DNA of 64,000 nucleotides from Candidatus Aenigmatarchaeota archaeon (lineage in GTDB: Archaea > Aenigmatarchaeota > Aenigmatarchaeia > CG10238-14 > SCSR01): NCBI GenBank assembly GCA_038998625.1, contig JAWADS010000001.1:9222-73221 (forward strand), written 5' to 3'. The translations under genes were made by a program, and so were the position numbers. The first letter of the stretch is position 1; every line of letters begins with the position of its first letter. This document shows, piece by piece, positions 9,147-33,569 of the stretch. The notes beneath the pieces were generated by a model. That model ran no database searches. It was given only the letters and a program-made list of their open reading frames with translations, and had not been told where the DNA came from.

Positions 9147-9193
9147 TTTTCTCTAAATTAAATTTGTTGTTCAAAAGATTTAATTAGTTTATA

Positions 9194-9724: not shown

Positions 9725-9731
9725 TCAACCA

Positions 9732-10280: not shown

Positions 10281-10310
10281 AATTAGAATTTGGTAAAAAA
10301 ACGATATAAA

Positions 10311-12348: not shown

Positions 12349-13170
12349 ATGAATGTTGGGCAGTTTTTTATTTTGGCTCTATTTTTAACTTTTTTAGTTT
12401 TTATTTTACCTGTTATTTTAACCGAGTTCGGGGTTTTGTCGCCTAATATTGTTTCTCTTTTTGAACGAGTTAAAGATATTTTGATTGTTAAAATATTAGG
12501 TTATTCGCCAGAGGCTGCGAGGTTCCCAGATGTGATTTTTACTATAATTCTTCCATTTGGTATAGCTCTAGCTGTTATATTAATTTTCTTAGATTTCATG
12601 CAGAAAAACATCTTTCCTAATGTTTCTCCATCTCTCTTCTTTTTCCTAGGATGGTTTATTTCCTTAATTGCTACAAGATTTTTTGGCCCTATCATATCAG
12701 GTATTTATGCAGGCCTAGGGTTTTATGCAACAGTTGCATTTGGAGCTATATTGATAATAACAATAGCTATAGCATTTAAATTAACTGGTGCTGGCCTGAT
12801 GGGGCTTTTTGTTGCAGGTATAATTGGTGTAATTTTTTCTTTTGGTGGTTTATGGTTTATGGAATATTTAGGATTAACGAAAGTTGGTTTTGGGAATATA
12901 ATTTGGTTAAGTATATTTACAGGTGCTATGGCTGTTGGATTAACATATATGTATGCACGACAAGTGAGAGCTATAGCCCCACAGGTAATAACAGATATAG
13001 ATAGAAGGCTTACTGATTTACACAATGCGTATAATGAACTACTTGCGAAAATAAATCCAGAATTGCCAGCTGAGCAACAGGCGAAATTATATGCTGAACT
13101 GGCAAACTTAAGAACAGAAATAGCTGCATTAGAAGAACAAAAAAGAAAGCTTTTAATTGAAACAGCTTAA
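12349..13170 (+). CDS. membrane protein, paralog family member F with C-terminal coiled coil
   Basis: ILGYSPEAARFPDVIFTIILPFGIALAVILIFLDF motif; C-terminal AEQQAKLYAELANLRTEIAALEEQ. Confidence 0.45.
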   Translation: MNVGQFFILALFLTFLVFILPVILTEFGVLSPNIVSLFERVKDILIVKILGYSPEAARFPDVIFTIILPFGIALAVILIFLDFMQKNIFPNVSPSLFFFLGWFISLIATRFFGPIISGIYAGLGFYATVAFGAILIITIAIAFKLTGAGLMGLFVAGIIGVIFSFGGLWFMEYLGLTKVGFGNIIWLSIFTGAMAVGLTYMYARQVRAIAPQVITDIDRRLTDLHNAYNELLAKINPELPAEQQAKLYAELANLRTEIAALEEQKRKLLIETA

Positions 13171-13802
13171 CCTTCCTTTTTCACTTTTTGTACAACATCA
13201 ACTAAGTTTCTTACACTTTCTATTAAAGCTGGTAAAGTTTCTTTGAAAGCTTTTTCTAAACCCGAAACCCTAGAAGATATATCATTAAAGCCTTGTGTTA
13301 CATCTTCCAATTTTGCCACAACATCCTTTTGTTTAATTAAAGCTAGTCCACTCTGAGATAACTCATTTACTTTTTTAGACAAATTTTCAACTTTTTCTGT
13401 TAATTTAGTGAAGTTCTCATTTATTTTATCAATCTTTTCATTTACTTCATCTATTCTAAATTCAACAATATAATCAATATAGTCTTCTAAGGTGTACTCT
13501 GAGGCAGAAGAAGGTAAAGATGTTTCAGGTATTTCTAAAGGTTTGTTGGATTTTTCTATTTCTTCATAAGTTGGCAACTCTTTTTTTTCTTCCTTTTGTG
13601 GCGGGGATTGAACATTAACTTTTAAAGCTTCGCTCAAAGCTTTATCTATTTCATCTGCAGAAAAGCCTTCCTTTCTTAAGGCATCTATTATTTCAGTTTC
13701 AAAAAATCCCTTAGAAGCCATCTCTTTAACTCTATCAACAGGAACATAGCCTTTACCAATAATTACAGCTGGCTCTTTTTTCTTTAAGAAGGGTATTACC
13801 AT
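13167..13802 (-). CDS. coiled-coil protein, hypothetical (pilus-locus associated)
   Basis: 211 aa, C-terminal two thirds heptad-rich; directly upstream of pilus ATPase locus on the opposite strand. Confidence 0.4.
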   Translation of the reverse strand: MVIPFLKKKEPAVIIGKGYVPVDRVKEMASKGFFETEIIDALRKEGFSADEIDKALSEALKVNVQSPPQKEEKKELPTYEEIEKSNKPLEIPETSLPSSASEYTLEDYIDYIVEFRIDEVNEKIDKINENFTKLTEKVENLSKKVNELSQSGLALIKQKDVVAKLEDVTQGFNDISSRVSGLEKAFKETLPALIESVRNLVDVVQKVKKEG

Positions 13803-13830
13803 AGTTAATAATTTGTTTTTTAAATTTAAA

Positions 13831-14214
13831 TCAAGTCCCTTTTAATAGGATTTTTTCTTCAAGTTCTTTTAATTCCTCTTTAGTAACAAATTTTGATTTT
13901 ACTGGGTTAAACATTTCCACAAATGTTTCTATTACTTTTAACTCAGACTTTGTGGCTGCCTTATCCAAACTTTTCTTTAGTTTTATAACTTCATTTTCAA
14001 ATTGGTCTATCCTTTCCGAAATTTTTTTTATCTGTTCTAAAATTTCTGCTGTATTCTCTTTCATATTATCTCTTAATGCTTTTAAGTTATTGTTAAGAGA
14101 ATCTATGCTTATTTCTATTGTATCTATTCTTTGCTCTAAAGTTTTAATTCTCCTTGAGTCTTCATTCATTCTTCTAACTAGTTCATTTGCTAAAACTTTA
14201 ATATCTTCTACCAC
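13831..14214 (-). CDS. coiled-coil protein, hypothetical
   Basis: 127 aa almost entirely coiled coil. Confidence 0.4.
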   Translation of the reverse strand: MVEDIKVLANELVRRMNEDSRRIKTLEQRIDTIEISIDSLNNNLKALRDNMKENTAEILEQIKKISERIDQFENEVIKLKKSLDKAATKSELKVIETFVEMFNPVKSKFVTKEELKELEEKILLKGT

Positions 14215-18806: not shown

Positions 18807-19472
18807 ATGGCTACAGGTTTATCTTGGTCTGTTTCGCTTATCTTTGCAATTATCATTGGAATATTGATTGTTTTATTAATTTTTGGCGTGGGGAGTGCAC
18901 TAATTCCGGCTATTGCCGATAGAGCTATGAGCTTTGTGTGTAATTTTCCCATCATGGATGTTACTATTTGTAAAGCTTATGCTGAGAAAAGAACTGTGGA
19001 AGTTTGTTTTGAAAAAGAAGGGTGGGGCCAATTACAAGAAGGAATAAGGGAAGAGAGAAAAATAACTTTAACTTTTATTGCTAGACCATTTGAGCTAATT
19101 CCAATTTATAAATGCTCGGAAAGTCATCAAGCCGTTATTAAAGGAGACCCACCAATACTTTCTTGTAATGTATTAATCTCAAATTCTATAAAAAAGCAAT
19201 TTCGTATAGATGTAAAAGTTCCTGTTGAAGTGGTACGCCCCCCACAGACCGATATTCTAATTATTAAACCAAAAGATGACCCAACAATAACAATTTGGAA
19301 AGCTAATGTGAAATATTCAATCGGGGATAGCTCTTGTGGTGTAACTATAGGAGATTCATCCTCACCCGAAAAGCTGACAAAAGGCGAGAGCATTACTTAT
19401 GATGGTTTAAGAGTAACCCTTAAAGATTACGGAATAGGGGGTTTCATTTTTGAATTGTTTTATTCTAAATAA
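18807..19472 (+). CDS. pilin-like protein with class III (type IV prepilin-like) signal peptide
   Basis: MATGLSWSVSLIFAIIIGILIVLLIF N-terminus; Cys-containing extracellular domain. Confidence 0.5.
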   Translation: MATGLSWSVSLIFAIIIGILIVLLIFGVGSALIPAIADRAMSFVCNFPIMDVTICKAYAEKRTVEVCFEKEGWGQLQEGIREERKITLTFIARPFELIPIYKCSESHQAVIKGDPPILSCNVLISNSIKKQFRIDVKVPVEVVRPPQTDILIIKPKDDPTITIWKANVKYSIGDSSCGVTIGDSSSPEKLTKGESITYDGLRVTLKDYGIGGFIFELFYSK

Positions 19473-19509
19473 ATACTTTTAAATAAATGTAAAATCAAAT
19501 TATTATAAA

Positions 19510-19911
19510 ATGGTTTTAAATAAAAAAGGTTTATCAACTTTAACTATTGTAGTAATAGCTCTTATAATTGCAATCATATTAGGTTTTTTAATATTTTCAG
19601 GTTCTGCTTTTCAACTAGGGCGTGGAACGAGTATAGGTGCGGGAATAGGTTGTTCTCAAGTTCTTAGAGCTATGTGTGCAGATTATAAGGAGCAAACTAA
19701 TGGATTATATGATCCCGGAAGATACCCAACAATACTTCAAGCGCATCTAAAGAATATAGAGGATAATTGTAAAAGGGAAGAGGTATATTGTGATCCAAGT
19801 AAGCCAGGTTGTAGAATTAATTTAAATGATGTAGGAAATGTAATAGTATATTGTTGTGGTTCTGTTGGTGGCGACATATCTGTATGTCGGCCTCAAGCGC
19901 CTCCACAATAA
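19510..19911 (+). CDS. archaeal type IV pilin-like protein, Cys-rich
   Basis: MVLNKKGLSTLTIVVIALIIAIILGF matches the class III signal-peptide consensus ([KR]G then hydrophobic); 8 Cys in a 100-aa globular part. Confidence 0.65.
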   Translation: MVLNKKGLSTLTIVVIALIIAIILGFLIFSGSAFQLGRGTSIGAGIGCSQVLRAMCADYKEQTNGLYDPGRYPTILQAHLKNIEDNCKREEVYCDPSKPGCRINLNDVGNVIVYCCGSVGGDISVCRPQAPPQ

Positions 19912-20056
19912 TGAACATGCTATAAGTATAACAGTTCTTCAAGATATTCTGAGATAGATAAAGTATATAGCATATTAGAACTTGTTATTGTAGACCAGAA
20001 TAGCGATCCTTTTTTTAAATTAAAAGCTAAAAATTTGAATAAAATTCTCTATTTTT

Positions 20057-20521
20057 TCACTTTTTTAAAGTTATATTTTCTGTTCTTTCCAATGTTAATA
20101 TATAACCTTTAGCTAAAATTTCTAACTTACAATCCTCTTTTCCAACAAATCTTTTTGTCGAGACATTTAATTCAAAACAATCCCCGGCTATCAAATTCAG
20201 TTTTTCTTTTACTAGGTTTTCATCTATTTTCATTTCTCCTAATTGTTCTATTTTGCATATAAAAGGCATATTACAAGATAACTTTTTTATGGGTCTTATT
20301 CCTGATAGCCAAAAACTAAAGTTACGATAGAAATTCATATCTGAAAGAAAGGCCAACAAACTGTCGTGGGCATCGGTGAATTGCATTTCATTTCTTGTTA
20401 AACCAACAATATGGAATTTCAAAAAGAAAAAATTTAAAATTCCAGATAGTAGTATAGCAATGGAAAAAAGTACTAAGGCAACGGCTAAAGAGATTAAAGA
20501 CAGGCCTTTTTTCACCATCAA
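20057..20521 (-). CDS. archaeal type IV pilin-like protein
   Basis: MMVKKGLSLISLAVALVLFSIAILL class III signal peptide. Confidence 0.6.
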   Translation of the reverse strand: MMVKKGLSLISLAVALVLFSIAILLSGILNFFFLKFHIVGLTRNEMQFTDAHDSLLAFLSDMNFYRNFSFWLSGIRPIKKLSCNMPFICKIEQLGEMKIDENLVKEKLNLIAGDCFELNVSTKRFVGKEDCKLEILAKGYILTLERTENITLKK

Positions 20522-21309
20522 CTCACCTCAAAACTTTGCAAAACTAATCTACCTATTTTGTATCCATCAACTGTAAAATCATAAAGAATTACAGGAAAAG
20601 CATCCATTGAGTAAGTTGATGAGGAGAAAGATTTAGATAGTTCTTTTTCAAAACAAGTTTTTGTTGTGGCCAAGTCAAACACATCTAAGCTTACTCTTTT
20701 TCCTTCTCCCACTTCAATAACAATTCCGATGGGTAGGAATCTGAAGAGAGCTTGAAATAAAACATCTGTAATTCTTATATTTTGGATAGCACATCTAAAA
20801 AAGTTCATAATAGCCCCTTCTGCCAATAAAGCTTCGCCATGACCTCTATAAACCCATTTTTTTCCATCTTCCAAATTTAGTATTGTAAGTAGATGGGCAG
20901 TGTTGGGATATGAATAACTTGCGAATAAGTTATTTTCAGATATTTCATCTAGTTTGGTTATGTTAAAAACCAAATACTCAGAATACTTTTTTGTAATATC
21001 TACATTTGGTTGAATCAAAGAATATTTATTTAATGTCTTAGTGGTATTCTTCACTAAAAACTCCTTTGCTCCGATTAAGGCTTTACCTAAATTTATATTA
21101 TGCCTTCTCGCTTCGTTTTCGGTAATGATGGCATGCAAATTCAAATAACGTGCTATATAAAAGTAATAAATCATAACTGCTAGAAGAATCATTATTAAAA
21201 TTACAATAACATCAAAAAGTTCAGTAGTAGCTTTTTTATTAATCAAAAAATTTTTAACTTTCAAAATTTTATCCCTCTCTAATATCAAATTTTTCTCCGG
21301 CTTTTTCAA
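20518..21309 (-). CDS. membrane-anchored hypothetical protein (pilus locus)
   Basis: N-terminal TM; start overlaps previous gene stop (ATGA). Confidence 0.35.
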   Translation of the reverse strand: MKKPEKNLILERDKILKVKNFLINKKATTELFDVIVILIMILLAVMIYYFYIARYLNLHAIITENEARRHNINLGKALIGAKEFLVKNTTKTLNKYSLIQPNVDITKKYSEYLVFNITKLDEISENNLFASYSYPNTAHLLTILNLEDGKKWVYRGHGEALLAEGAIMNFFRCAIQNIRITDVLFQALFRFLPIGIVIEVGEGKRVSLDVFDLATTKTCFEKELSKSFSSSTYSMDAFPVILYDFTVDGYKIGRLVLQSFEVS

Positions 21310-21676
21310 TTAGGAATGTGCTAACTTTATCTAATTTTTTATCGATTCCGTTAATACCAGCTTTAGCTTTACCAAATTTTACTGTAGCGCGCAAATCTAA
21401 TGGGCCCTCCCTTGTTACAATTTCCACTTTATATATTCTGTCTTTTACTTCAAGATTGTAAACTGCAGGAGTTCCATAAACAATATATACATTACCAGGA
21501 AAAGCGGCGCTAACTGTAACTAATCCAGATAAATCCCTTGCCACGTTTTCTGCAGTATAATGCAAAATAGATAATAAAAAATCGGTAAAAAATTTAGGAA
21601 TAGTTATGATTATTATTGCTCCTAATAAACCCATTAAAGCCATAGTCAAAAGGGTTATCGCAGTTAAACCTTTCAT
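21269..21676 (-). CDS. archaeal type IV pilin-like protein
   Basis: MKGLTAITLLTMALMGLLGAIIIITI class III signal peptide. Confidence 0.55.
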   Translation of the reverse strand: MKGLTAITLLTMALMGLLGAIIIITIPKFFTDFLLSILHYTAENVARDLSGLVTVSAAFPGNVYIVYGTPAVYNLEVKDRIYKVEIVTREGPLDLRATVKFGKAKAGINGIDKKLDKVSTFLIEKAGEKFDIREG

Positions 21677-21704
21677 ATTAATAATTTCATTTTTAGGAAA
21701 TAAA

Positions 21705-21998
21705 TCATCTGACCTTTGCTAAGACTTCACAACTTTCTTTGTTGGGTTCCAAAATTTGTACTTTTTCACATTTTTCTTTCACATTTATCCACCAATTTGG
21801 CTTATTTGCTTCATCAAATAAAAATTTACTCCATTCCTCACAAAAAGTGAAGACATGATTAATACAATCCATTTTGTCTTTTTTCTTTGCTTCTTCTTCA
21901 GCCCAACCTGAAAATGTTATTAAGAGGACTAAAATTAGAATTAAAGTTATTAAAGCGAAAAAAATTATCTTCCAAACTAAACCTTTTTTTGTATTCAT
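21705..21998 (-). CDS. archaeal type IV pilin-like protein, 4 Cys
   Basis: MNTKKGLVWKIIFFALITLILILVLL class III signal peptide. Confidence 0.55.
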   Translation of the reverse strand: MNTKKGLVWKIIFFALITLILILVLLITFSGWAEEEAKKKDKMDCINHVFTFCEEWSKFLFDEANKPNWWINVKEKCEKVQILEPNKESCEVLAKVR

Positions 21999-22009
21999 AT
22001 TTTATATTT

Positions 22010-22372
22010 TCATTTTAAAGAAAAAAACCCTGCTATTTCGTTATAGTTACAATATATGGTTGATGCGCCTTCTATAAGTGTCATTATAAAAACCAGGAAG
22101 ACAATAATGCCATATAAATTGCTCAAAAATAATCCCCCTACTAATGATACCATTGGTCCAAATCTGGAAAATATTAAGATGTCTAGAATAAACAAAGCTA
22201 TTAAAACAATTGTTGGCTGCAAAGCTAAAAAAATTATTTTGATGCCTAACGGTAAAGTCCAACCAAAAAGCCTCAATAAAAAGAAAAATGGACCTTCGCT
22301 GATAAAACATGCTAAAGGCTGTAAATTGTTTAAAAAATAATTAAACTGTGCTAAGACAGACAAATCAACCAT
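22010..22372 (-). CDS. small polytopic membrane protein, hypothetical
   Basis: 120 aa, 3 predicted TM. Confidence 0.3.
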   Translation of the reverse strand: MVDLSVLAQFNYFLNNLQPLACFISEGPFFFLLRLFGWTLPLGIKIIFLALQPTIVLIALFILDILIFSRFGPMVSLVGGLFLSNLYGIIVFLVFIMTLIEGASTIYCNYNEIAGFFSLK

Positions 22373-22970
22373 AGGTTACACTTTCCCATTTTTTTTCAGA
22401 AAATATGTCTAACATTTCTTTTACTTGTTCAGATTGAATTTTATTTTTTAACTCATCGAGCTTTTCATCCAAGTATGGAACAAAAAAAGGTGAAAAATGA
22501 AAAAGAAACATTAAGAAAAGTATCGTAATTAGACTCATGGCTAATCCTTTGCCTATACCCTTTTTCATTCTGTTATTGGTTTCGGAATAAGATGAAATAA
22601 AAATTAAAACAAACATACCAGTTATAAACAAAGGGGCTATTAAAACTAAAAAGTTTGAGACATTAAAAATAAATGCAACAAAATTTTCAGAAAAGCCACC
22701 AACAGTTACCAATAGAGATTTCAATATTATTTCTAAATAGATGCTTATATTAAGGGTAGCGTAATAGGATAAAATAACACTTACTGTTATGTTAATCATT
22801 TTCATCATCTCGAAATTTTTTATATTGAATCCCTGCTTTTCTTCTTCTAATTTTTTTACCTCTACACTTTTTTCTAAAGACTTTTCTAAAAGTTTAGAGA
22901 CTTTTTCTAATTGTTTAGCAATTTTTTCACTGATTGCAGATTTGGCCTTATTTAAAATTGCTTTTACCAC
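22365..22970 (-). CDS. membrane protein with N-terminal coiled coil, hypothetical
   Basis: 201 aa; charged helical N-terminus then 4 TM. Confidence 0.35.
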   Translation of the reverse strand: MVKAILNKAKSAISEKIAKQLEKVSKLLEKSLEKSVEVKKLEEEKQGFNIKNFEMMKMINITVSVILSYYATLNISIYLEIILKSLLVTVGGFSENFVAFIFNVSNFLVLIAPLFITGMFVLIFISSYSETNNRMKKGIGKGLAMSLITILFLMFLFHFSPFFVPYLDEKLDELKNKIQSEQVKEMLDIFSEKKWESVTYG

Positions 22971-23005: not shown

Positions 23006-24865
23006 ATGAAAGGGATTTCTACTTTACTAGTTTTGGCCGCAATTTTTTTATTTGTAAGCTTGCTTATAAATTTTATTTTCTTTCTTAATGTTTTGTCAAG
23101 AGAAGAAAATTTTGTTAGAACAGTAAGGGAAATGTATATCTATCAAGGGATAAATTACATCGAGCAATTTAAGAGGGCTTTTCCTTTTTTAATCGAATAC
23201 TCAATTTATAAGACTCTATCTCATAATGGAGGAGAACTATGTTCTTTCGGCCAAAGCACTTTTATAACTCCTTTAGCAGCCCAAGATTTCTTAAGCAGAA
23301 ATCGCTTACTTACTATTAATAATGTTCCCGCAGGTAGTATTCATACATCCCTCTATTGGGTTTTACTATATTTTGACAATTATCATAATTATTTAAATAA
23401 AATTGCCGAATTAACTTCGATCTTTTCTAGGATTCAACGCATCGTCTTCGATTATACCCCCGGGGTTAAAGTTGATGGTTATGCTGTGGATGATAAAATA
23501 TTAGTAACTTCTGAAAATACAATATCAAAACTTTTGCCAAACAATTTAGGAATTTTAAATGAAACCTTAAATGCTTCTGTCGAATTAATCATGAATTTTA
23601 TTCAACTCCTCGATAGAGCAGACGAAGAATGGTTAAATCAACCAAAATGTAGTGAGAGGGATTCTCTAGTAAAAAGTACAGCTGAGGCCTTTGAATGTAG
23701 CGAGGAAGGATCTTTTACCTACTCTTCATTAGAAGAATGTGAAAATGCTTGCGTATATATGGAACCATCAAGATGCGTTTATATTTTACAGCAAGAAATT
23801 GCTGGTGCTATAGGTGTACCATTAGGTTCAGATGTTAAAAACATTGATAAAGTTAAGGGAAGGTCAGTTGCTATAAGAGAATATACTAATCTAGGTGTCG
23901 AAACAAATTATCTTTTAGGATATTGCGTTGATAGTGGTTGCGATTGTTCTAAAAAAGAGTGTGAAGAGAAGGATGATGAAGGAAATTGTATTGAAGAAAA
24001 GTGTGTAGAATGGACTAAGAAAGTTAAGTGTGAATACAAAAATTGGAGGGCAAGAGCAGGTTTATCTATCACAGAAAAGGATGAAAGGAATTTTTACCCT
24101 GCTTCGAATGATTGGGTGCAATCACAATTTAGTTTTAGTATGGTTTTAGGGCATTTGGATTTAGGAACCAGAACTACATTAGACACTTGTGCTACTAGAA
24201 AAATAATTGAAGCCCAGTTGGAGGAAGAGTGTAAAAAGTCTGGCGGAACTTGGAATCCAGATAAAAAGCAATGTGAAAATTGTCCAGATAGGAAAGTTTT
24301 CTACAAAGGTAAATGTGTAGAAAAATCTATTGTATGTAAAGAGACAGGTGGGACTTACAATCAAGATACAGACACATGTTCATGTCCTGATGATAAATTA
24401 CTTGTTCTAGAAGCTTATTGTATAAATAAAAAAGAAATTTGTGAAAGCGAAGATGAGAATTTGGGTATAGTCAAAGGTAATTACAACCCACAGACAAATG
24501 ATTGCGAATGCCCTCAAGATACTATTGATATGGGTCCTTATTGTTTATCAAAAAAAGCAGCTTGTACTCAAAGCGGTGGAACTTATAATCCAAATAATCC
24601 GAAAAAACCTTGCGAATGCGATGCAAATAAGGGTTTAATTTCTTGGGGGGATGTTTGTGTAAGTAAGAAGGAGGCTTGTGGTTTTAGTGCTCCAGATAAG
24701 GGAATAAAAGCCGGTACATATGATGAAGTTAATAGAGTTTGTGATTGCCCTAATGGAACTAAATACAATGAAGAATTTGGAATTTGTGTAGAAGCAAAAC
24801 TAGTATGTAGTTGTGCAAAAAATGTTGTGACTAACGAAGTAATCTGTAGTTGTTCAGAAGCTTAA
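23006..24865 (+). CDS. secreted cysteine-rich repeat protein (5 repeats of about 42 aa with 4 Cys each)
   Basis: N-terminal TM/signal; C-terminal repeats of pattern C-x12-13-C-x-CP-x10-12-C-x6 (for example CKKSGGTWNPDKKQCENCPD..., CKETGGTYNQDTDTCSCPDD..., CTQSGGTYNPNNPKKPCECDAN...). Confidence 0.6.
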   Translation: MKGISTLLVLAAIFLFVSLLINFIFFLNVLSREENFVRTVREMYIYQGINYIEQFKRAFPFLIEYSIYKTLSHNGGELCSFGQSTFITPLAAQDFLSRNRLLTINNVPAGSIHTSLYWVLLYFDNYHNYLNKIAELTSIFSRIQRIVFDYTPGVKVDGYAVDDKILVTSENTISKLLPNNLGILNETLNASVELIMNFIQLLDRADEEWLNQPKCSERDSLVKSTAEAFECSEEGSFTYSSLEECENACVYMEPSRCVYILQQEIAGAIGVPLGSDVKNIDKVKGRSVAIREYTNLGVETNYLLGYCVDSGCDCSKKECEEKDDEGNCIEEKCVEWTKKVKCEYKNWRARAGLSITEKDERNFYPASNDWVQSQFSFSMVLGHLDLGTRTTLDTCATRKIIEAQLEEECKKSGGTWNPDKKQCENCPDRKVFYKGKCVEKSIVCKETGGTYNQDTDTCSCPDDKLLVLEAYCINKKEICESEDENLGIVKGNYNPQTNDCECPQDTIDMGPYCLSKKAACTQSGGTYNPNNPKKPCECDANKGLISWGDVCVSKKEACGFSAPDKGIKAGTYDEVNRVCDCPNGTKYNEEFGICVEAKLVCSCAKNVVTNEVICSCSEA

Positions 24866-24898: not shown

Positions 24899-25276
24899 AT
24901 GAATTGGGAGGAATTATATAAAAAATATTCAAAGCCAAAAAAGAAAAAAATATTTCCTATTTTATTAGTTATAGTCTTTTCGACTCTATTTTTTCTCTTC
25001 ATATTATATTATTTTTCTTTACCAGAATTTATAGAGCCACAGGCTGAAATTGTAAGTGATGTAATAACTCTACCTTCTATAAAGGGCGAGCATTGCACAA
25101 TATATATAACTGGTCCAAATAATATAATAAAATTATTTTCGGAATATGATTGTAGCGAATATCAAATTTTTAGGTTTGAGATTTTAGATCTTTTTTCGGA
25201 TATTAAAGGTAGGTATAAGTTAGTTGTTGTTTCTGATTCAGGAAATAATTTGACGAAAAACTTTTTGGTGGTATAA
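24899..25276 (+). CDS. single-pass membrane protein, hypothetical
   Basis: 125 aa, N-terminal TM; stop overlaps start of giant gene (TAATG). Confidence 0.35.
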   Translation: MNWEELYKKYSKPKKKKIFPILLVIVFSTLFFLFILYYFSLPEFIEPQAEIVSDVITLPSIKGEHCTIYITGPNNIIKLFSEYDCSEYQIFRFEILDLFSDIKGRYKLVVVSDSGNNLTKNFLVV

Positions 25277-28200
25277 TGAAAAAAAGTATTTCAATTTTTT
25301 TAATTATAACTTATTTGCTCTCCATTATTAAAGTACCAATAGCTGTCACGCAGAGTACAGATAATTTTAGTGATGAAGATGTAAAGAAAATTTTAAGCAA
25401 AGGAGCAATATTTTGTGTAAAAGATGCTGTAGAGGTATCTAAAGATGTTTATAAAGTTGTATGTTTAATCTCTCCTAAAAATTTAACCAAAGTAAAATTT
25501 GAATTTGGGCCCGCATTTAGTTTTGGAAGAATGGAGTTTCTAGGTTATGAAGCCACAGATAAGATTGAGTTTGTGAGCAAATTTAAGAACTTTCTGGAGT
25601 TTGAAGTATTTCCCACTTCTAGAGTAGGATTTACTATAAATATAAAAGCAAATTTCAGGCCCAATTTCAAAGTAACTTCCACTCTACCTGCTTATTACTT
25701 TAATGATTTGAAAGAACTTTTTGATGCTATAGATTCTATTCATTCTATAGAAGCATTGGAAGTTTTAAAATCTAGTTGTGAGGTGGCGTTTGAGAAAGAA
25801 TGTGTTTTAGAACATTTTATTACTAATTCCAGTGCTCCGGCGAAATATATAAATTTAACTAGTGATGAGTTAAGCAAATTGGTAGCTTTAGGAGAATTTT
25901 CCAAAAAGATAGATGGTGCTGATGTAAAATTTGTGCTTAGTTTTGAAAATAATGAAGTAAAAGTTTATGATAAGGAAAATTATGTCGGAAACTTTTATTT
26001 GCATTCAGCTTTTGTTCCCGTTAAAGCGCCAAGCCTCCCTGAAACGAATTTAACATCTTTAGAAACGATTAAAGAAGTTACCTTATTTTTCTTGAATTAT
26101 GAATTGAAAATAAATGGAACTGACGTTTATATAACAGAGTACGAAGATTTAGATTTGTTGGCAGATGAAATATTTTCTGGCAAACTATTTCCAATTACAG
26201 GTTCTTTTATTGCCACAGAAATTTTTAATAAGATAAAAGAAGAGTTGCTAATTAAACAAAGTAAACAAAGAGATTTAGCAGAAAAAATACATACTTTTGA
26301 AAAATTCGCTACCGACTATAATGTAAATATATTTAAACGCATAATGATTGCTATCTTAAACGAGATAAATAATAATATAGAATTAGGTGAAATAGAGGAA
26401 GCTAGTCAGCGTATAACAAAATTGAAAAATGCAGTTGGGGAATTTTCAAAAAATGCAGTTGGGGAATTTAAAGATTATTTCCAAGATTTAGAGAAAGAAC
26501 TAACTAAAATAGAAGAAACCATTAAAACAGATTTTAAAAGTGCACTAGATTATGTAAGAAATTTAAAAGAAAAAATAACTTCTGAAACAATTAATGATTT
26601 CCTTCAAGTTGCAAAGTCGAAAGGAGTAGATATATCTAAAAAATTTACAGAGAAAGATGGTAGGAGAGCACCAAAAGTTGTAAATGTTGTAAGAACAAGC
26701 GTAACAGAATTACCACCATCTATAAAAGATAAAATCACGTCACCTATATTCGTTCCTAAAGGACAACCTGATTTAAAAGATATGAAAAAATTCTTTAAAG
26801 AGCTCGCTTTTAGGGATTATATTGACCAAGGCATTTATTTGTTCTGGGGTGATTACTCAAAGGTCCCTAGAGAATATTTACAAGTATATGTTTCTGTAGC
26901 TAAGGAAGATTATCAAAAGGCTTTGAAGTTTATACAATTTGAACTGAAAAGAAATAATATACCTCATTTAATGGTTAAGCCAGAGCTTTATGATGAAGTT
27001 AAGAATGGAAAATATGTGATAATTCTTTTACGTAATAATGACGATTTGAGAGTGGTAAGGACCATAGAAGATATCTTATATAATCTAAATATTAGACCTG
27101 GGCCCAAGCCTTTAATAAAGGGAATATCTTTAGATAAGTATATAATAAGTAAATATACTTTTGGCGCGTGGGAAAACAATTTTGGTGGAGAAAAAAAGAT
27201 TAAACCAATTCTTGCATATAATTCTGATACTGGGAAGTTGGAAACTATATCTCCAGAGACACCTTTGCTTCCAAAAGTTGTTACACAATCTGATTTATTG
27301 AATAAAAATTTCAAAGAGGGAGATGTGATTGCTTATTTTGCTCCTCATGGTGATGCTAGAATATATTTAATGGGGGAAATAAAATCCTTTGACGCAAGTA
27401 AAAAAAGAGTTCTCGTTTCAAATATTTTTGGTTCAGAATTTGAGATCCCAATAAATTGGGTATCAAATACACCAAACATTCATATCTTTTACGATAAACA
27501 TAAGCAAATCGAAATACGACAATTATCAGAAAAACTATGGAGGAATTCTCTATCAAAAAATCTCGCCTCTAAATTAAGCATATCGGATGTTGAGCTTTTG
27601 TTAAAGAATGGATTTTACCTTAAAGGTGATTTAGTTTATTACCTTTCTGAAGATAAAAGAATTTATAGCTTACCTCTCGATGATTTTCTAAAATCTCCCT
27701 CAATTGAAGATATTTTTTGGGATACATATAAGAATCATTTAATAGTTATTCCTAATTCCCTAAGCGAAAAATATCCTGCGAGACTTAAAGGTCTTGCTAT
27801 AACTAAATCTGTTTATAATGATATAACTTCTTGGATTAATAACATCCAGCCCGGTCAACAGAAAGGTTTAGTTGCTTTCCTTACAATGAATGAAAAAGGA
27901 GTGATAGACAAAGTTTGGTTAAAGGGCATAACTGATCCTGTTTATGAAGGAGTGACTCTTGGTTCTATCCAAGATTTCCATAAGTATATATTAGCAAAAT
28001 ATTTGAACCCATTAGAGTTTGGTCTACATGGAAAACTATTGGCATATTTCGTACCAGAAGGCTTCTTACCAGATTTAACCTTAGGGCAACTTTTAGCGTC
28101 TTTTGAGTATGATAAAAAGGATGTTTTTCATTTATTGCTTATTTCAAGAGAATTAGGTGAAGTAAAATTTAATTTTTACAGAATTGATTTTTCCAAGTTA

Positions 28201-31200
28201 TCGAAGGATGATATTCAATGGCTAAAATACATAGCGAATGAATATCGAAGGAGAACTGGAACAGAATTAGCTTTATCTACAATAAGTGAGCAATTGGAGG
28301 CGCACCCAGATTTAAAAGCATATTTTGAAAAACATTCTAATTTCCACAAGATTGGTACACAAAATATTGAAATGGTTCATAAAATTGATGAAACAAAAGC
28401 TTTCAAAATTGCACTACTTAATGGTGAACAAGCCATAGGTGGTTTGGAGAGATCTCTAAAAAATCTTAAAAAAATGATATTTTTTGGCAATGAGTTAGAT
28501 CTTCAAACTGGTTTTACATATAGATATTCTTTTAGATACGCTTCTAATATATATACAGAAATACGCAGAAGAGTGGATCTATGGGACAGTATTTTAGATA
28601 ATCTGTTAAAAAGCGGTGAGATATCCCAAGAAATTTACAATTCTTATAAAAACATAATAAATAAAGTTTACGAAATAGGATTAACCATTGAGCCAGGGAA
28701 GCCTATAAAGGATACTTTGAAAAAAATTGATGAAGCTTTAAAGTCAATAAAGAATGAAAAGAAGACATTATTTAAATTATTATCCTATCAATCTAAAAAA
28801 TTATCCATAGAGCCCAACACTGGGTTTAGTGAGGTCGCTAAAAATATAGAACCTACTAAATTACCTGAAAATATTGAAGAGTCCATAGAGAATTCTGCAA
28901 TCGCTAAAGTAGCAAAAGAAGAAGCTGAAAAGGGCATAAAAGAAATTCCAAGTCAAGAAGAAATTCTACAAAAAATTGAAAGGGAACAAGAAAGATTAAT
29001 ATCAGAAACACCAAGAACGAGTTTTGAGCCTACTGCTCAAAAAATTGGTAAAGTAGATGAATTAACTTCCAAGATTGATAATTATATCCTATCTAGTAAA
29101 ATAGCAGATTCGTTAACAACAGAAAATATTAGAAAATTGTTGGATGGAAAAGTAGTTTTTGTTGATGATAATTATTTGCTTGTATTATCTCCAAAAGGTC
29201 AATTAACTTTAGTTCATTTTCCTGATAAAACGTTTTTATATTCTTCCGATGGAACTAAGGCTGTTATAAAAATGAGATCCACACCCTACCTAACACCAGA
29301 CGATTTAGATGAATTAATAAAAAAGAACATACCTATGGTTTATCCGAAATATAAGCTTCCCGATGAAGTTCTTGTAATAGGAATTGTGGATGGAAGGCCT
29401 GTTGAAAAACTTTATGATTTGAGAGAATTCAAAAAGTTTGTTGAAAATGAGGGAACGCCTTCAGCAAAAATATCAAGAGAATTTAGAGAAAAATTTAACT
29501 CTTATTTAGATTCTATTCGTGGAACAGAAGAAGAAGTTGTAAAAGCGTTAGATAAATTTTTCAATATGAAAGGGTTGCCGGAAAAATCTGATTTAACTAT
29601 TGCGGCAGGCCCGGCAGTAAAAGTAAAACCCAAATTACTCAACATCGATGAAGATTATCTTCAATTCAGGTTAGGAATTTCTATTATTAATGCCGAGACG
29701 GCACAAAACGTACTTTCACCAATATATGCTATAAGGGACGATTTAGAAACTAATTTTAAGTTAATGGGAATAAAGACCCCTGATGACATAGCAGATGGTA
29801 TGACAATAAAAATAAAAGGAAGAGATTATGTTTTACGTAAATTACCTAATAACCAAATTTCTATCGAGCTTGCAGTTTTTCGTGAGGGTGATCCATCCCT
29901 TTTAGAATTCCAAAAAGTGGGCACATTTTATCTTGTTGATGGTGAAGTTAAAGATGCGTATTCATGGAATAGAGCGGTGGCTTCTACGTTCAAAGATGTA
30001 AAGGCTTCTCAAGACCTCAGGGATGGCAGATATATTCTGAATACAAATAATTACAAAATTGAAAAAATGGATTATGGCTCAGTAGTGTTTGAAAATAATA
30101 GGCCAGCTATTTTTAGTATTGTAGGGGCAAATAGGGAAACCATGTATGTACCTATTTCTATTGATAGATCGCAATTTTTGCAAAAAACTTTCTCAGAAAT
30201 CGGAACTGCTGGGATAGGAAAAGAATATGCATTCGGTTCAGACAATGGAGATGTCTATAGATTTACCAAAAGACATTGGGAACCCGATTTAAAATGGGAA
30301 ATGGAAGTTAATGGAAAACCGGCTGGATTTTTGACGGATGAAGGATTAAAAACAAAAATAAGAGAATTAGTGGGTTCTGGTTATAATCCATTAATTCCCG
30401 CTTATAGGTTTAGTCCAATCGATGTTGAAAAAGAAATAAGAGGACTTTCAGAGCCTTATTATTCTAAAACTTTCTCAAATGGTCAAGAAGCTTTCAGACT
30501 TAGAAATGTTGATGGTCGCATTATATTAGAGACAGGGGGGATGCAACCAAGAACAATAACTGTTGAAGAGGCTCGGTCACTTCTAGCAACATCTAAAAGA
30601 GTAGAGATATTAAGCACAGATGGTGCTAATTTAATATCCCAAACATCTTTTTGGAAACAAATATCAAGGCCAGTAGGAATATTAACAAAAGATTTTTATC
30701 CTTTAGTTGGTCCGGCTGATTTTATTGCTTTTGGCGCTATAGCAGCATTTTCTCTTTATAGTATAACTGAAAATAGGGAAGAAATGAATAGGAGAATTGT
30801 TTATAATACGGTTGAAAATTTTGCGGTCGAGCCTCTATTAGTTACAACAATTGCAAGGGGTTTAGGTCTGAGAGCAGCTTTCAGTGGCGCAAGGGCTGCT
30901 GTTGCGGGCGTAGGTGGCGCAATTACTCTAGGAATTTTAACGGCTGTAGTTGCTGCAGAAATGGTTGCAGAAGATACAATAGAAGAATATCTAAGAGGTA
31001 ATAGGTTAAATGATATGGGTATACCTATACCTAATGATTTGGGGTCAGCTTTAGGTAGAGTTTTTGGAGGATATTGGGACTTTTTAATAAATTCAAATAG
31101 TGAGCAAACTCTAGAGAGTAGCAGTATGTTTAATACAGTAGCTACATCCATTTATAAAGACTTATCTAATCAAGCATTAAAAAACTTTCAAAATTATATA

Positions 31201-32682
31201 GATTCAAAGATTGGTAATAAAAATAATGAAATCCTTAAGGGAATACAAAAAATCATAGAACTTCACGGCACAGGTCCTAAAGGAAACTATGTAGACATAA
31301 TCGATGGTACGGAATATGTGTGGTTTATGGAAGAAGGTAAGTTTGAAGTTAAGTATACAAATGAAGCCGGGAATAAAGTTACAATAACCTATAGAATAAC
31401 TGATGCGGGTATTGTACCTACTGAATATAAGGAAGAAGGTAAAGTGGGCTTTGATGCTCTCGGTTGCTTAACACGTCCCTTAGGTTTAGGTGGGAATTGT
31501 TGTTTAAATCTAGCTGGGTGTGATGTAGGAATAATAGAAGAAAGGAAGATTAGTTTCTCTGATTTACAACATGAGGCTTTCAATAGGGCCGATGATTTAA
31601 TTGTTGATAGAGTAGAAGGAGATTTAAATAGATTGACTGCCTTTACAAAACCCGATGAAATTCTTAATGAAGCTCAAAGAATAGCCGATAAACTAAATTC
31701 AGATCCAAATTTTGTTCAATATTATGGTAGGCCCATCACAGCTTCAGAAGTTATTGAACTTGCAAAACCAAAAATTAAAAAAGATGCTGAAACAGAATGC
31801 CTACAAGCATTTGCTGGAGATATTTATGGTTTCTCTTCACAAGAAGCTTATGATAAATGCGTTGAAGATACATATAAGAAAAAAGTTCAGGCATTCGAAG
31901 AAAGTCATAATCAGATAGGATTTAAAGATTGTTCACAAGCTGGTGGAACATGTATGCCACCTATACATGCTGTGGAACGTGGTTGCGAGAGGTTTTACTT
32001 TTATTGCGATAGTTCACGAATGTGTTGCAAATCCCAAGTAAGTACACCGCAAGAGCCTAAAGGTCAAGAGACAATCAATACTTACGAGGCATGTGAAGGC
32101 TTACGTAACCAGGGACTAGATTCAGGTTGCTATCTTGGCAAATGCGGTCAAGGTTACATTTCAGCAGGCTATTGCGATAAGGCAAATGACGTTTATTGTT
32201 GTGTTAAGGCAGAAGGGACTGGCCAAATCAACACTTACGAGGCATGTGAAGGCTTACGTAATCAAGGACTAGATTCAGGTTGCCATCTTGAAAAATGTAT
32301 TCAAGGTTACACTTCAGTAGGTTATTGTGATCAGGCAAATAGCGTTCATTGTTGTGTTAAAACAGAAGATTGTACTTCAAAGGAATTGAAAAAAGAATGT
32401 ATTAGTGATAAAAAACTAAGGATTACTGGTTATGTTTGTCCTTCTGGCTATGGTAGTGATATAAATTGTCTGAAATGTGTGGAGGGTTCTGCGGAGATAG
32501 AATGTAAAATGGGATGCAGCACCAAAACTAACAACTGTGTTGAAGAAAATTTTGTACCCATAGGAAATTATATTTGCCCAAAAGACGCTTGCAGTAAAAG
32601 CGGTGAATTTTGGACTTGTGATTTGGGTAGATGTGAGGCTCTACAAGGCAGCAGTGCACCTACTGCACCTACAAGTGAATAA
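25276..32682 (+). CDS. giant secreted/surface protein (2468 aa) with C-proximal hydrophobic segments and C-terminal Cys-rich modules
   Basis: Uninterrupted 7.4-kb ORF; signal peptide MKKSISIFLIITYLLSIIKVPIAV; hydrophobic stretches at residues about 1805-1900; C-terminal 400 aa with more than 40 Cys including a duplicated 51-aa 6-Cys module. Confidence 0.8.
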   Translation: MKKSISIFLIITYLLSIIKVPIAVTQSTDNFSDEDVKKILSKGAIFCVKDAVEVSKDVYKVVCLISPKNLTKVKFEFGPAFSFGRMEFLGYEATDKIEFVSKFKNFLEFEVFPTSRVGFTINIKANFRPNFKVTSTLPAYYFNDLKELFDAIDSIHSIEALEVLKSSCEVAFEKECVLEHFITNSSAPAKYINLTSDELSKLVALGEFSKKIDGADVKFVLSFENNEVKVYDKENYVGNFYLHSAFVPVKAPSLPETNLTSLETIKEVTLFFLNYELKINGTDVYITEYEDLDLLADEIFSGKLFPITGSFIATEIFNKIKEELLIKQSKQRDLAEKIHTFEKFATDYNVNIFKRIMIAILNEINNNIELGEIEEASQRITKLKNAVGEFSKNAVGEFKDYFQDLEKELTKIEETIKTDFKSALDYVRNLKEKITSETINDFLQVAKSKGVDISKKFTEKDGRRAPKVVNVVRTSVTELPPSIKDKITSPIFVPKGQPDLKDMKKFFKELAFRDYIDQGIYLFWGDYSKVPREYLQVYVSVAKEDYQKALKFIQFELKRNNIPHLMVKPELYDEVKNGKYVIILLRNNDDLRVVRTIEDILYNLNIRPGPKPLIKGISLDKYIISKYTFGAWENNFGGEKKIKPILAYNSDTGKLETISPETPLLPKVVTQSDLLNKNFKEGDVIAYFAPHGDARIYLMGEIKSFDASKKRVLVSNIFGSEFEIPINWVSNTPNIHIFYDKHKQIEIRQLSEKLWRNSLSKNLASKLSISDVELLLKNGFYLKGDLVYYLSEDKRIYSLPLDDFLKSPSIEDIFWDTYKNHLIVIPNSLSEKYPARLKGLAITKSVYNDITSWINNIQPGQQKGLVAFLTMNEKGVIDKVWLKGITDPVYEGVTLGSIQDFHKYILAKYLNPLEFGLHGKLLAYFVPEGFLPDLTLGQLLASFEYDKKDVFHLLLISRELGEVKFNFYRIDFSKLSKDDIQWLKYIANEYRRRTGTELALSTISEQLEAHPDLKAYFEKHSNFHKIGTQNIEMVHKIDETKAFKIALLNGEQAIGGLERSLKNLKKMIFFGNELDLQTGFTYRYSFRYASNIYTEIRRRVDLWDSILDNLLKSGEISQEIYNSYKNIINKVYEIGLTIEPGKPIKDTLKKIDEALKSIKNEKKTLFKLLSYQSKKLSIEPNTGFSEVAKNIEPTKLPENIEESIENSAIAKVAKEEAEKGIKEIPSQEEILQKIEREQERLISETPRTSFEPTAQKIGKVDELTSKIDNYILSSKIADSLTTENIRKLLDGKVVFVDDNYLLVLSPKGQLTLVHFPDKTFLYSSDGTKAVIKMRSTPYLTPDDLDELIKKNIPMVYPKYKLPDEVLVIGIVDGRPVEKLYDLREFKKFVENEGTPSAKISREFREKFNSYLDSIRGTEEEVVKALDKFFNMKGLPEKSDLTIAAGPAVKVKPKLLNIDEDYLQFRLGISIINAETAQNVLSPIYAIRDDLETNFKLMGIKTPDDIADGMTIKIKGRDYVLRKLPNNQISIELAVFREGDPSLLEFQKVGTFYLVDGEVKDAYSWNRAVASTFKDVKASQDLRDGRYILNTNNYKIEKMDYGSVVFENNRPAIFSIVGANRETMYVPISIDRSQFLQKTFSEIGTAGIGKEYAFGSDNGDVYRFTKRHWEPDLKWEMEVNGKPAGFLTDEGLKTKIRELVGSGYNPLIPAYRFSPIDVEKEIRGLSEPYYSKTFSNGQEAFRLRNVDGRIILETGGMQPRTITVEEARSLLATSKRVEILSTDGANLISQTSFWKQISRPVGILTKDFYPLVGPADFIAFGAIAAFSLYSITENREEMNRRIVYNTVENFAVEPLLVTTIARGLGLRAAFSGARAAVAGVGGAITLGILTAVVAAEMVAEDTIEEYLRGNRLNDMGIPIPNDLGSALGRVFGGYWDFLINSNSEQTLESSSMFNTVATSIYKDLSNQALKNFQNYIDSKIGNKNNEILKGIQKIIELHGTGPKGNYVDIIDGTEYVWFMEEGKFEVKYTNEAGNKVTITYRITDAGIVPTEYKEEGKVGFDALGCLTRPLGLGGNCCLNLAGCDVGIIEERKISFSDLQHEAFNRADDLIVDRVEGDLNRLTAFTKPDEILNEAQRIADKLNSDPNFVQYYGRPITASEVIELAKPKIKKDAETECLQAFAGDIYGFSSQEAYDKCVEDTYKKKVQAFEESHNQIGFKDCSQAGGTCMPPIHAVERGCERFYFYCDSSRMCCKSQVSTPQEPKGQETINTYEACEGLRNQGLDSGCYLGKCGQGYISAGYCDKANDVYCCVKAEGTGQINTYEACEGLRNQGLDSGCHLEKCIQGYTSVGYCDQANSVHCCVKTEDCTSKELKKECISDKKLRITGYVCPSGYGSDINCLKCVEGSAEIECKMGCSTKTNNCVEENFVPIGNYICPKDACSKSGEFWTCDLGRCEALQGSSAPTAPTSE
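26425..26472 (+). repeat. 24-nt tandem duplication (encodes KNAVGEFS twice) inside giant gene
   Basis: aaaaatgcagttggggaattt occurs twice with 24-nt period. Confidence 0.7.
32074..32379 (+). repeat. 153-nt tandem duplication (about 90 percent identity) encoding a 51-aa 6-Cys module
   Basis: atcaaTacttacgaggcatgtgaaggcttacgtaaCcagggactagattcaggttgcTatcttg... repeated starting 32074 and 32227. Confidence 0.85.
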
Positions 32683-32714
32683 AGCTGTTAAATCTTTAAT
32701 TACTAATATTATTT

Positions 32715-33569
32715 ATGGAAAAAGGTCAAGCAGGTTTAATAATTATTGCCGTAGTTGTTGTATTGGCCATAATAATTTTTATGTTTTCTTCATCTGGCCC
32801 TACCACAACCTTTCCTACTGGTGGTATAGGTGGTAAAGGAAGTGCTTTGAATATAGAGCAATTAAGGTTTAAACCTGAAGTCTTTTCAGGAGAAAGTATT
32901 GTTATCGAAGTAAAAATAAAGAATAGGGGTATATATGATGCTAAAAATGTTGTATTAAATCTTTTAGGCCTAACCGATGAATGGAAAATAGATGGCGAAC
33001 CATTAACATCAAATCATCCTAAAAGAACAGTGAGTTTTCCAACGCTTCTAGGAGATCCAAAGCTAAATGGTGAAGAACAAATAGCTATTTGGCAATTAAC
33101 AGTTCCAAATAAAGTAACTACCCTTACATATCCATTCACCATAAAACTTAATTATGATTATAAAAGTAGATACGAGGCATTGGTTAGAACAGTTTCCCCA
33201 ACTTTTAGAGAAAAGGGAAGGCTTCTAGATCAAAAGATTACTCCTGGACCCATAGTGGTTAGTCTCAAATCAGATGAGTGGCGCGTCATCGGAACTTTTA
33301 CAAGTGTTGAATTAACTATTACTAATTCTGGAGGCGGAGAGGTAGTGGACAGAGTTATTACTTTAAAAAACCTTAAAAATATAGAATGTCCGCAAACTAC
33401 ATTAACTTTTAGCACAAAAGATTCACAAATAGAAAAAGAAATAACAACAACATGTAAAATTCTTACAGGTTCGGTCCAAGAATTTAATGATATTGAAGTA
33501 AGTTTTGATTTAGAATATAGATATTCAATAAAACAAGATAAAAGCATAAAAGTTAAACCTTTAGCTTAA
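32715..33569 (+). CDS. secreted pilin-like protein with class III signal peptide
   Basis: MEKGQAGLIIIAVVVVLAIIIF matches archaeal prepilin motif (KG then Q/A); 260-aa beta-rich extracellular part with 2 Cys near C-terminus. Confidence 0.5.
   Translation: MEKGQAGLIIIAVVVVLAIIIFMFSSSGPTTTFPTGGIGGKGSALNIEQLRFKPEVFSGESIVIEVKIKNRGIYDAKNVVLNLLGLTDEWKIDGEPLTSNHPKRTVSFPTLLGDPKLNGEEQIAIWQLTVPNKVTTLTYPFTIKLNYDYKSRYEALVRTVSPTFREKGRLLDQKITPGPIVVSLKSDEWRVIGTFTSVELTITNSGGGEVVDRVITLKNLKNIECPQTTLTFSTKDSQIEKEITTTCKILTGSVQEFNDIEVSFDLEYRYSIKQDKSIKVKPLA

Follow-up and report, generated by a model that had tools for sequence, protein, structure and literature searches.

A 64,000-nucleotide stretch of DNA from a Candidatus Aenigmatarchaeota archaeon (assembly GCA_038998625.1, contig JAWADS010000001.1, positions 9,222 to 73,221), hereafter the window, carries a gene at 23006-24865 for a cysteine-rich protein of 619 residues. 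On balance, this target is probably a modular type IV pilin-like protein, likely placed at a pilus tip, with an epidermal growth factor (EGF)-like, disulfide-stapled rod for adhesion. Modular pilins as such are already known; what would be new is such an adhesin of modular pilin type from a DPANN archaeon, bearing an unannotated four-cysteine EGF-like repeat. The window contains an archaeal signal recognition particle RNA and has a GC content of ~31%, and a DPANN archaeon is supported as the source organism.

The open reading frame (ORF) given in an initial annotation of the window was borne out and runs for 619 residues from an ATG. In NCBI, the identical protein (P0001, in a record labelled 'Candidatus Pacearchaeota archaeon') is modelled with only 584 residues; this model begins 35 residues later, omitting the stretch encoded by 23006-23110 and with it the hydrophobic N-terminus. 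Since the codon at the deposited start is TTT, the start codon in P0001 is not canonical in the window sequence. The longer ORF is further supported by the closest homologue, P0002, which has the identical MKGIST... start. Thus, a late start in the public annotation conceals the pilin-like signal, and an equal error would conceal such proteins in other metagenome-assembled genomes.

According to the FlaFind-type rule, class III signals reportedly show [KR][GA][ALIFQMVED][ILMVTAS] after a short basic leader, followed by a hydrophobic stretch of at least 20 residues. Residues K2-G3-I4-S5 of the target and the segment behind them fit this pattern. AlphaFold2 (AF2) predicts a helix at the signal segment, with a per-residue confidence (pLDDT) of 64-79, and the K-G start and hydrophobic helix are conserved in P0002 and in three more distant homologues, P0004, P0006 and P0007. 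A Sec-type cleavable signal peptide was rejected, as the hydrophobic core of ~27 residues is too long. The initial annotation had called the protein secreted; an extracytoplasmic location is almost certain, but the term is imprecise for a protein that begins with a 27-residue class III-type hydrophobic segment and no Sec signal peptide.

Behind the signal lies a conserved N-terminal domain by which the target can be placed in a family. Profile searches over 1.84e9 representatives matched this domain to P0004 (Aenigmatarchaeota), P0006 and P0007 (E 2.7e-5 to 2.6e-4). The matches cover aa 1 to ~160 only and have the motif N..R-x-E...R...E...E..K in common. By BLASTP, the N-terminal domain of the target is 38% identical over 86 aa to its counterpart at locus L006 (E 1e-10) and 31% identical over 118 aa to that at locus L002 (E 5e-8). 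The three homologues have 304-395 aa and, according to a hidden Markov model (HMM) of the repeat, lack the repeat array. The target and P0002 exceed them by ~450 residues, made up of an acidic, cysteine-rich middle and the repeats, which together form a lineage-specific extension of these two proteins.

The genomic context of the homologues ties this family to pilus loci. Locus L002, on a 319-kb contig, is syntenic with the window: two coiled-coil genes, the filament assembly ATPase (60% identity), a membrane protein (38%), three pilin-like genes and an AMP phosphorylase gene (67%) are found in both. There, a series of nine consecutive genes that begin with K-G before a hydrophobic stretch ends in P0006. 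At locus L005, P0007 closes a gene run encoding 96, 142, 228 and 159 aa, which it overlaps by 4 bp. In both loci, the target homologue therefore closes a colinear pilin-like run, downstream of a T2SSE/FlaI-like ATPase. At L006, P0004 is preceded by a homologue of window ORF 22365-22970 and by a gene for a membrane protein with a cysteine-rich module that also occurs in a giant protein of the window. The pilin-like block of the window (20057-21998, minus strand; 97, 135, 263 and 154 aa) corresponds in gene order to L002 7918-9988 (98, 206, 225 and 138 aa) and to L005 188-2072 (the run of 96, 142, 228 and 159 aa), and three of the six small pilin-like genes at 18807-21998 have orthologs in unchanged order at both loci. 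The target homologue lies on the same strand as the block in L002 and L005; in the window, block and target have opposite orientations. As a single copy was found at each locus with the N-domain profile, the target can be regarded as the local member of a conserved single-copy DPANN pilus-locus family.

In the window itself, the gene lies, as had been described, between the pilus locus and the gene for a giant surface protein (the 2468-aa ORF). The assembly ATPase and a 649-aa membrane protein are encoded ~4.5-8.8 kb upstream. Besides its Pfam assignment, the ATPase has partial NCBIfam matches to FlaI (E 2e-35) and TadA (E 3e-33). Six small genes with class III-type N-termini follow, one of which has a weak match to N_methyl. 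Only 35 bp separate ORF 22365-22970 from the divergent target gene. The target heads a run of four co-oriented genes (619, 125, 2468 and 284 aa; gaps of 33, -1 and 32 nt), and L001, the locus of P0002, has the matching order (733, 130, 2328 and 282 aa). A terminator-like site was not found between the target and the downstream genes in a scan for bacterial-type promoters and terminators, which is uninformative for an archaeon.

A conserved, single-copy gene that stands last in the gene runs of L002 and L005 would also suit an assembly or anchoring part of the pilus machine, i.e., a bitopic analog of FlaF/FlaG or PilN/PilO/GspL-M whose external domain touches the surface layer (S-layer) or the base of the filament. 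The best NCBIfam match of the ATPase is FlaI, the upstream coiled-coil genes have weak FlaC-type matches, and conserved charged residues right after the transmembrane (TM) segment suggest an interface role. We nevertheless consider this explanation quite improbable. A lineage-specific extension of ~450 residues made of variable, adhesion-type repeats would be unusual for a core assembly factor, and homologue lengths of 304-733 aa fit an exposed, fast-evolving part; searches of Pfam and NCBIfam did not link the target to any FlaF/FlaG or PilO model.

The exposed end of the target is dominated by cysteine. The protein has 38 Cys residues (6.1%), distributed as 1 (aa 1-200), 13 (aa 201-400) and 24 (aa 401-619), compared with a total of 0-5 in most other window ORFs of at least 110 aa. 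The five four-cysteine repeats proposed initially are real, and the recurring GGTYNP motif was recovered in the unit-by-unit variants SGGTWNP, TGGTYNQ, KGNYNP, SGGTYNP and AGTYDE. Their dimensions had to be revised: the five units fit C-x13-20-C-x1-2-C-x10-12-C-x6 (the first spacer had been given as x12-13), and they start at aa 409, 444, 479, 520 and 558, with periods of 35, 35, 41, 38 and 43 residues (mean 38) instead of about 42. In four of the five units, the C-x-C is followed directly by proline ('CP'). The array spans aa 409-600 and is directly followed by a CSC-x10-CSC tail (aa 601-616); it thus occupies about a third of the protein, at the C-terminal end, and not the whole C-terminal half. 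In the full-length AF2 model, the repeats reach a pLDDT of 80-90, and most of aa 32-400 stays below 50. The middle region, for which no family match was found in Pfam or NCBIfam, is modelled with low confidence, the exception being aa 305-344, which form a long beta-hairpin.

P0002 (733 aa; L001 23-2224) is the only close homologue, with an identity of 54% by BLASTP and 59% in the alignment. All 38 target cysteines are invariant in it, compared with 56% identity at the aligned non-Cys sites (0.563^38 = 3e-10). This full conservation points to structural constraint, and the repeats are beyond chance. Every one of the five units has a separate ortholog in P0002, unit-specific insertions included, so the five-unit array predates the split of the two organisms. 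Tandem Repeats Finder found no DNA-level tandem repeat in the target gene, which likewise indicates that the array is old. P0002 also carries an insert of ~115 aa in its middle region (aa ~150-265), with 14 extra Cys and two more four-cysteine units (e.g., CLQSGGIWDESTQKCRCG); the module has thus been added at a second site within the family.

Beyond P0002, relatives are scarce. A search of 5.8e9 clusters matched only the target itself and P0002. An exhaustive HMMER search over the 1.84e9 representatives returned six proteins at E <=1e-3, i.e., the target itself and five weak matches, which fall into two classes: P0004, P0006 and P0007, which match the N-terminal domain, and P0003 and P0005, which carry the repeat. 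No relatives were found in GTDB genome contigs, JGI metagenome contigs, IMG/VR viral contigs or INPHARED phages.

The repeat carriers P0003 (ENA metagenome) and P0005 (JGI metagenome) contain the unit in 8-9 tandem copies (repeat-unit HMM E 3e-15 and 9e-19) with the consensus C-x2-SGG-x-W-x6-C-x-C-x2-G-x7-C-x6. Their contig neighbors are bacterial (CarD in one case, Rrf2/IscS/NifU in the other). Both proteins consist of a Sec or lipoprotein-type signal, the repeats and a C-terminal TM segment; the unit is common to them and the target, and unlike the target they lack a pilin-like N-terminus and have a C-terminal TM anchor. The four-cysteine unit therefore occurs in archaea and bacteria, on surface proteins. 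An HMM built from the P0003 and P0005 repeats only had the target as its sole match among 560 six-frame ORFs (E 6e-6), and its five above-noise domains fall on the five target units, the first four in exact register; this test is partly circular, as P0003 and P0005 were found with the window's own profile. Further copies of the repeat were not found in the window, the cysteine-rich C-terminus of the giant protein included. The idea that the target repeats are the giant protein's cysteine-rich module was rejected, as neither the repeat HMM nor BLASTP between the two proteins gave a match.

The initial annotation could not assign the repeat to a family, and at threshold this remains so. Pfam and NCBIfam gave no match at threshold to the target as a whole protein, to three regions of it, to its single units or to the set of 26 units, and searches of PDB sequences with the protein, the unit profile and the N-domain profile yielded no significant match. 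Below threshold, the signals converge on EGF-type domains. When the 26 single units were compared with Pfam, EGF-type families made up 10 of the 19 matched, the best being EGF_MSP1_1 (E 0.0013) and EGF_3 (E 0.0042). The best match of the unit profile in PDB sequences was a fibrillin calcium-binding EGF (cbEGF) domain, again sub-significant (E 0.026), with C..G.W...C.C.P.G.....C aligned to 'CINTDGSYRCECPFGYILAGNEC'. Comparison of the unit by hhalign with a hand-typed set of 11 EGF domains gave a sub-significant probability of 41% and a score of 18.4, against a maximum of 11.9 in 30 column shuffles.

AF2 of aa 392-619 alone gave a mean pLDDT of 86 and a predicted TM-score (pTM) of 0.61, and every unit shows the same pattern: a beta-hairpin, C-x-C, a second beta-hairpin and a short linking helix, with the CSC/CSC tail as a final hairpin, whose cysteines may form cross-strand disulfides. 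Foldseek with the repeat model ranked megalin, Notch-1 EGF20-24, Pvs25, fibrillin cbEGF and NELL1 at the top, none at E <=1e-3; with the full-length model, it returned only noise (flavivirus E and MCM at E >0.3).

A canonical EGF-like domain has six Cys per unit of ~35-40 aa, paired 1-3, 2-4 and 5-6, and a major and a minor beta-hairpin on either side of its C-x-C. The target has four in each of its five units, and no whole-protein, region or single-unit search reached the gathering threshold of an EGF-clan Pfam family. For these two reasons, the unit is not filed here as an EGF domain. The PROSITE EGF_2-type signature reads C-x-C-x(2)-[GP]-[FYW]-x(4,8)-C; it is absent from the target and P0002 and present in three units of the bacterial P0003. 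Known EGF and cbEGF arrays, such as those of fibrillin (cbEGF), Notch (EGF), Plasmodium Pvs25 and MIC6 (EGF2), differ from the target in having six Cys per unit rather than four; the target units also lack the Ca-binding consensus residues and are linked by a short helix. Thus, the unit is best described as EGF-like in predicted shape and motif, and possibly as an EGF derivative minus one disulfide. An EGF-like or TNFR-like match had been named in advance as refuting the initial description, and the outcome is a grey area: EGF arrays are the nearest relatives by profile and fold, yet every score is sub-threshold and the units fall short of the six Cys that define the domain.

Two other family assignments fail more clearly than EGF. 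TNFR-like modules of ~40 aa have six Cys, compared with four per target unit, and the corresponding scores are poor (RANK_CRD_2 E 0.048 in one unit, TNFRSF21 E 1.3, TNFR2 by Foldseek E 1.0). A zinc-ribbon or knuckle was rejected because C-x13-20-C-x1-2-C-x10-12-C contains no CxxC pairs, and ADK_lid, the only match to such a family, reached 15.8 bits against a cut-off of 26.6. More generally, four invariant Cys per unit could bind metal, zinc-ribbon-like or as an Fe-S site, making the C-terminal region a metal-binding or redox module. Sporadic sub-threshold matches (ADK_lid E 0.013, LRV_FeS E 0.034, Znf_XAF1_N E 0.049) and a likely anoxic habitat, which disfavors disulfides, speak for this explanation. 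It is very unlikely all the same, given the spacing without the paired CxxC knuckles of zinc ribbons, the extracytoplasmic location, the predicted double-hairpin units with profile similarities to EGF-type disulfide modules, and a CSC/CSC tail hairpin that fits cross-strand disulfides.

The combination of a pilin-like N-terminus with a bulky exposed part has precedents. Modular type IV pilins include PilB and PilC of Streptococcus sanguinis, CofB/TcpB and GspK of the type II secretion system, and it has been proposed that their bulk confines PilB, CofB/TcpB and GspK to the tip or keeps their copy number low (PMC8179133). Some grafted pilin modules are repeat arrays without known function, as in a Falkowbacteria pilin from the candidate phyla radiation (CPR) with 12 repeats (PMC8179133). 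The target resembles these proteins in its class III signal and N-terminal carrier, which are followed by bulky grafted modules, and in being encoded with minor pilins and an assembly ATPase; tip display and adhesion would be expected for it. It differs from them in being archaeal (DPANN) and known from sequence alone, in an N-terminal module that lacks the pilin signature (IPR012902/PF07963) and a confidently predicted fold, and in its grafted module, a four-cysteine EGF-like array that is not among the known architectures. Archaeal type IV pilus loci are also known to encode large 'minor pilin or adhesin' proteins with signal peptides and conserved Cys proposed to form disulfides (Makarova et al., 2016; PMC4858521). 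Their description covers Thermoproteales and further lineages in culture, and the term 'DPANN' occurs zero times in that census (PMC4858521). Compared by description only, the target is likewise large, extracytoplasmic, encoded in a type IV pilus locus and equipped with conserved Cys.

For a modular pilin-like protein, the following course of events can be proposed. The class III signal would insert the target into the membrane, and the M-K-G leader would probably be removed by a prepilin peptidase. The hydrophobic helix and N-terminal domain could then dock the protein to pilin-like subunits assembled by the T2SSE/FlaI-like ATPase and the platform protein. An external part of ~590 residues would be too bulky for the filament body, leading to a tip position or low copy number; this step is drawn from its bulk, with GspK, CofB/TcpB and PilB of S. 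sanguinis as the models. At the end of the external part, five EGF-like four-cysteine units would form a rigid rod, closed by the CSC/CSC hairpin cap. Two disulfides are probable per unit, C1-C2 and C3-C4, corresponding by analogy to C2-C4 and C5-C6 of EGF, i.e., the EGF pattern minus one. The rod may hold a ligand-binding surface off the cell and beyond the S-layer, where it could attach to a host cell or to a surface; an S-layer protein gene in the window (59976-62237) counts in favor of such a reach. The analysis established the gene, its repeats, the complete conservation of the cysteines, the signal motif, the synteny and the confident AF2 model of the repeats; for this protein, we infer cleavage, filament incorporation, tip position, disulfide pairing and the ligand.

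Several observations weigh against this proposal. Searches of Pfam and NCBIfam matched the target to none of their pilin models, even at E up to 10, and the leader of only three residues is very short. The helix that AF2 places at aa 2-72 has a pLDDT <50 at aa 32-123, so that the N-terminal domain is not confidently modelled, and no PDB relative of this domain was found by sequence. For the 649-aa membrane protein, no match was found in Pfam, NCBIfam or PDB, T2SSF included, and the platform assignment is consequently by position only. Extracellular disulfides are assumed in a probably anaerobic archaeon, attachment to a host or surface is a plausible candidate function with a hypothetical ligand, and the full architecture is extremely rare, with two sequences in the databases searched. 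In addition, the small pilin genes are transcribed divergently from the target and do not form one operon with it, and a prepilin peptidase gene (Peptidase_A24) was not found among the window membrane proteins scanned.

These last two points would suit a protein that stays outside the filament, anchored in the membrane by an uncleaved signal anchor and raising a cysteine-rich stalk through the S-layer, possibly together with the giant protein. The target has one N-terminal TM segment and no other anchor; it is co-oriented and tightly spaced with the 125-, 2468- and 284-aa genes, an arrangement kept in L001; and the bacterial repeat carriers P0003 and P0005 are simple membrane-anchored proteins. 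Such an anchored protein is nonetheless unlikely, as the pilin-like genes around the target have an identical K-G motif before the hydrophobic stretch, the N-terminal domain family has a fixed place, in one copy, at the pilus loci of four DPANN lineages, and the target homologue in L005 is translationally coupled to pilin-like genes.

If the target is a pilin-like adhesin, its design would consist of a conserved N-terminal carrier common to DPANN lineages and an exposed end rebuilt from small disulfide-type repeats. Recognition of hosts and surfaces by DPANN archaea is largely unknown and Pacearchaeota are uncultivated, and the target offers a specific, testable candidate. Two unannotated families are defined in the process, both usable for profile models: the DPANN pilus-locus N-terminal domain and the C-x2-SGG-x-W...C-x-C four-cysteine unit. 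A further-reaching and rather doubtful idea is that the unit represents an undescribed prokaryotic 'mini-EGF', a double hairpin with two of the three disulfides that occurs in DPANN archaea and a few bacteria and has been placed on a DPANN-specific pilin-like carrier as a host-recognition rod at the pilus tip. If true, this would be the first time that an archaeal pilus is seen to bear an EGF-type adhesion module, and the mini-EGF would provide a molecular handle on DPANN-host attachment. The features discussed are collected in Table 1.

Table 1. Features of the target gene, its product and the neighboring pilus locus, in window coordinates. A slash in a motif stands before the hydrophobic stretch.
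Feature	Position	Strand	Sequence or motif	Remarks
Target gene	23006..24865	+		putative modular pilin-like protein of 619 aa; ATG start, stop codon included; from ORF list
Class III (type IV pilin-like) signal (aa 1-31)	23006..23098	+	M-K-G leader	putative cleavage after G3; 27-28-residue hydrophobic helix
Conserved N-terminal domain (aa 32 to ~160)	23099..23485	+	N28..R32-x-E34..R38..E42..E53..K56..G76	
Acidic middle region (aa 161-408)	23486..24229	+		13 conserved Cys; present in target and P0002 only
Repeat 1 (aa 409-443)	24230..24334	+	CKKSGGTWNPDKKQCENCPDRKVFYKGKCVEKSIV	AF2 pLDDT 83-90
Repeat 2 (aa 444-478)	24335..24439	+	CKETGGTYNQDTDTCSCPDDKLLVLEAYCINKKEI	
Repeat 3 (aa 479-519)	24440..24562	+	CESEDENLGIVKGNYNPQTNDCECPQDTIDMGPYCLSKKAA	7-residue insert in first loop, also in orthologous unit of P0002
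Repeat 4 (aa 520-557)	24563..24676	+	CTQSGGTYNPNNPKKPCECDANKGLISWGDVCVSKKEA	
Repeat 5 (aa 558-600)	24677..24805	+	CGFSAPDKGIKAGTYDEVNRVCDCPNGTKYNEEFGICVEAKLV	
Beta-hairpin cap (aa 601-619)	24806..24862	+	CSC-x10-CSC	kept in P0002; AF2 strands 599-605 and 612-618, pLDDT 66-77
Type IV filament assembly ATPase, 744 aa	14252..16486	+		Pfam T2SSE E 2.2e-15, above cut-off
Polytopic membrane protein, 649 aa	16519..18468	+		~10 TM segments; presumed platform protein
Six pilin-like genes	18807-19472; 19510-19911; 20057-20521; 20518-21309; 21269-21676; 21705-21998	+; +; -; -; -; -		class III-type N-termini; assigned from N-termini
K-G motif at ORF 19510			KKG/LS	
K-G motif at ORF 20057			KKG/LS	
K-G motif at ORF 21269			MKG/LT	
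K-G motif at ORF 21705			KKG/LV	
K-G motif at ORF 32715			KGQ/A	
Three co-oriented downstream genes	24899..33569	+	MEKGQ/A... (284-aa protein)	125-aa membrane protein, 2468-aa giant surface protein, 284-aa pilin-like protein

Further observations concern the surroundings of the target gene. The giant 2468-aa ORF (25276-32682, plus strand) begins with a Sec-type signal, has a TM segment near aa 1874-1892 and carries 36 of its 40 Cys in aa 2064-2453. Its six-Cys units of ~50 aa (aa ~2260-2365) share 36% identity (E 2e-16) with the C-terminal end of a membrane protein of 278 aa (L006 2522-3358), which is encoded directly upstream of the target homologue P0004 in the Aenigmatarchaeota pilus locus. 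This six-Cys module is a second cysteine-rich family tied to these loci, distinct from the four-cysteine repeat. The 284-aa protein that closes the four-gene run (32715-33569, plus strand; MEKGQ/AGLIII...) is 65% identical to its L001 counterpart, and a further class III-type N-terminus (MLKKAQ/ARIDEF...) is encoded at 44366-45493 on the plus strand.

Upstream of the ATPase and divergent from it, two coiled-coil proteins of 211 and 127 aa (13167-14214, minus strand) are kept in L002 and L006; they have weak matches only, to many coiled-coil families including FlaC_arch. Four tandem paralogous polytopic membrane proteins of ~150-180 aa with similar N-termini (MASPFEIVVRQLISLGFYDFLFPF...) are encoded at 8601-10772 on the minus strand; Pfam gave no match to them, and a gene at L002 246-761, by the pilus locus, resembles them in N-terminus and length. 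The S-layer protein (59976-62237, plus strand) has 753 aa, a signal peptide and a match to Pfam S_layer_C (E 1e-18), and its gene falls within the only GC-rich patch of the window (0.40 compared with ~0.31). Rfam places six tRNA genes in the window (among them 38015-38235, 55123-55266 and 56009-56094), several of them 100-144 nt long and presumably intron-containing; ARAGORN in bacterial mode reported two tRNAs, one with an odd 'Phe (aaa)' anticodon call.

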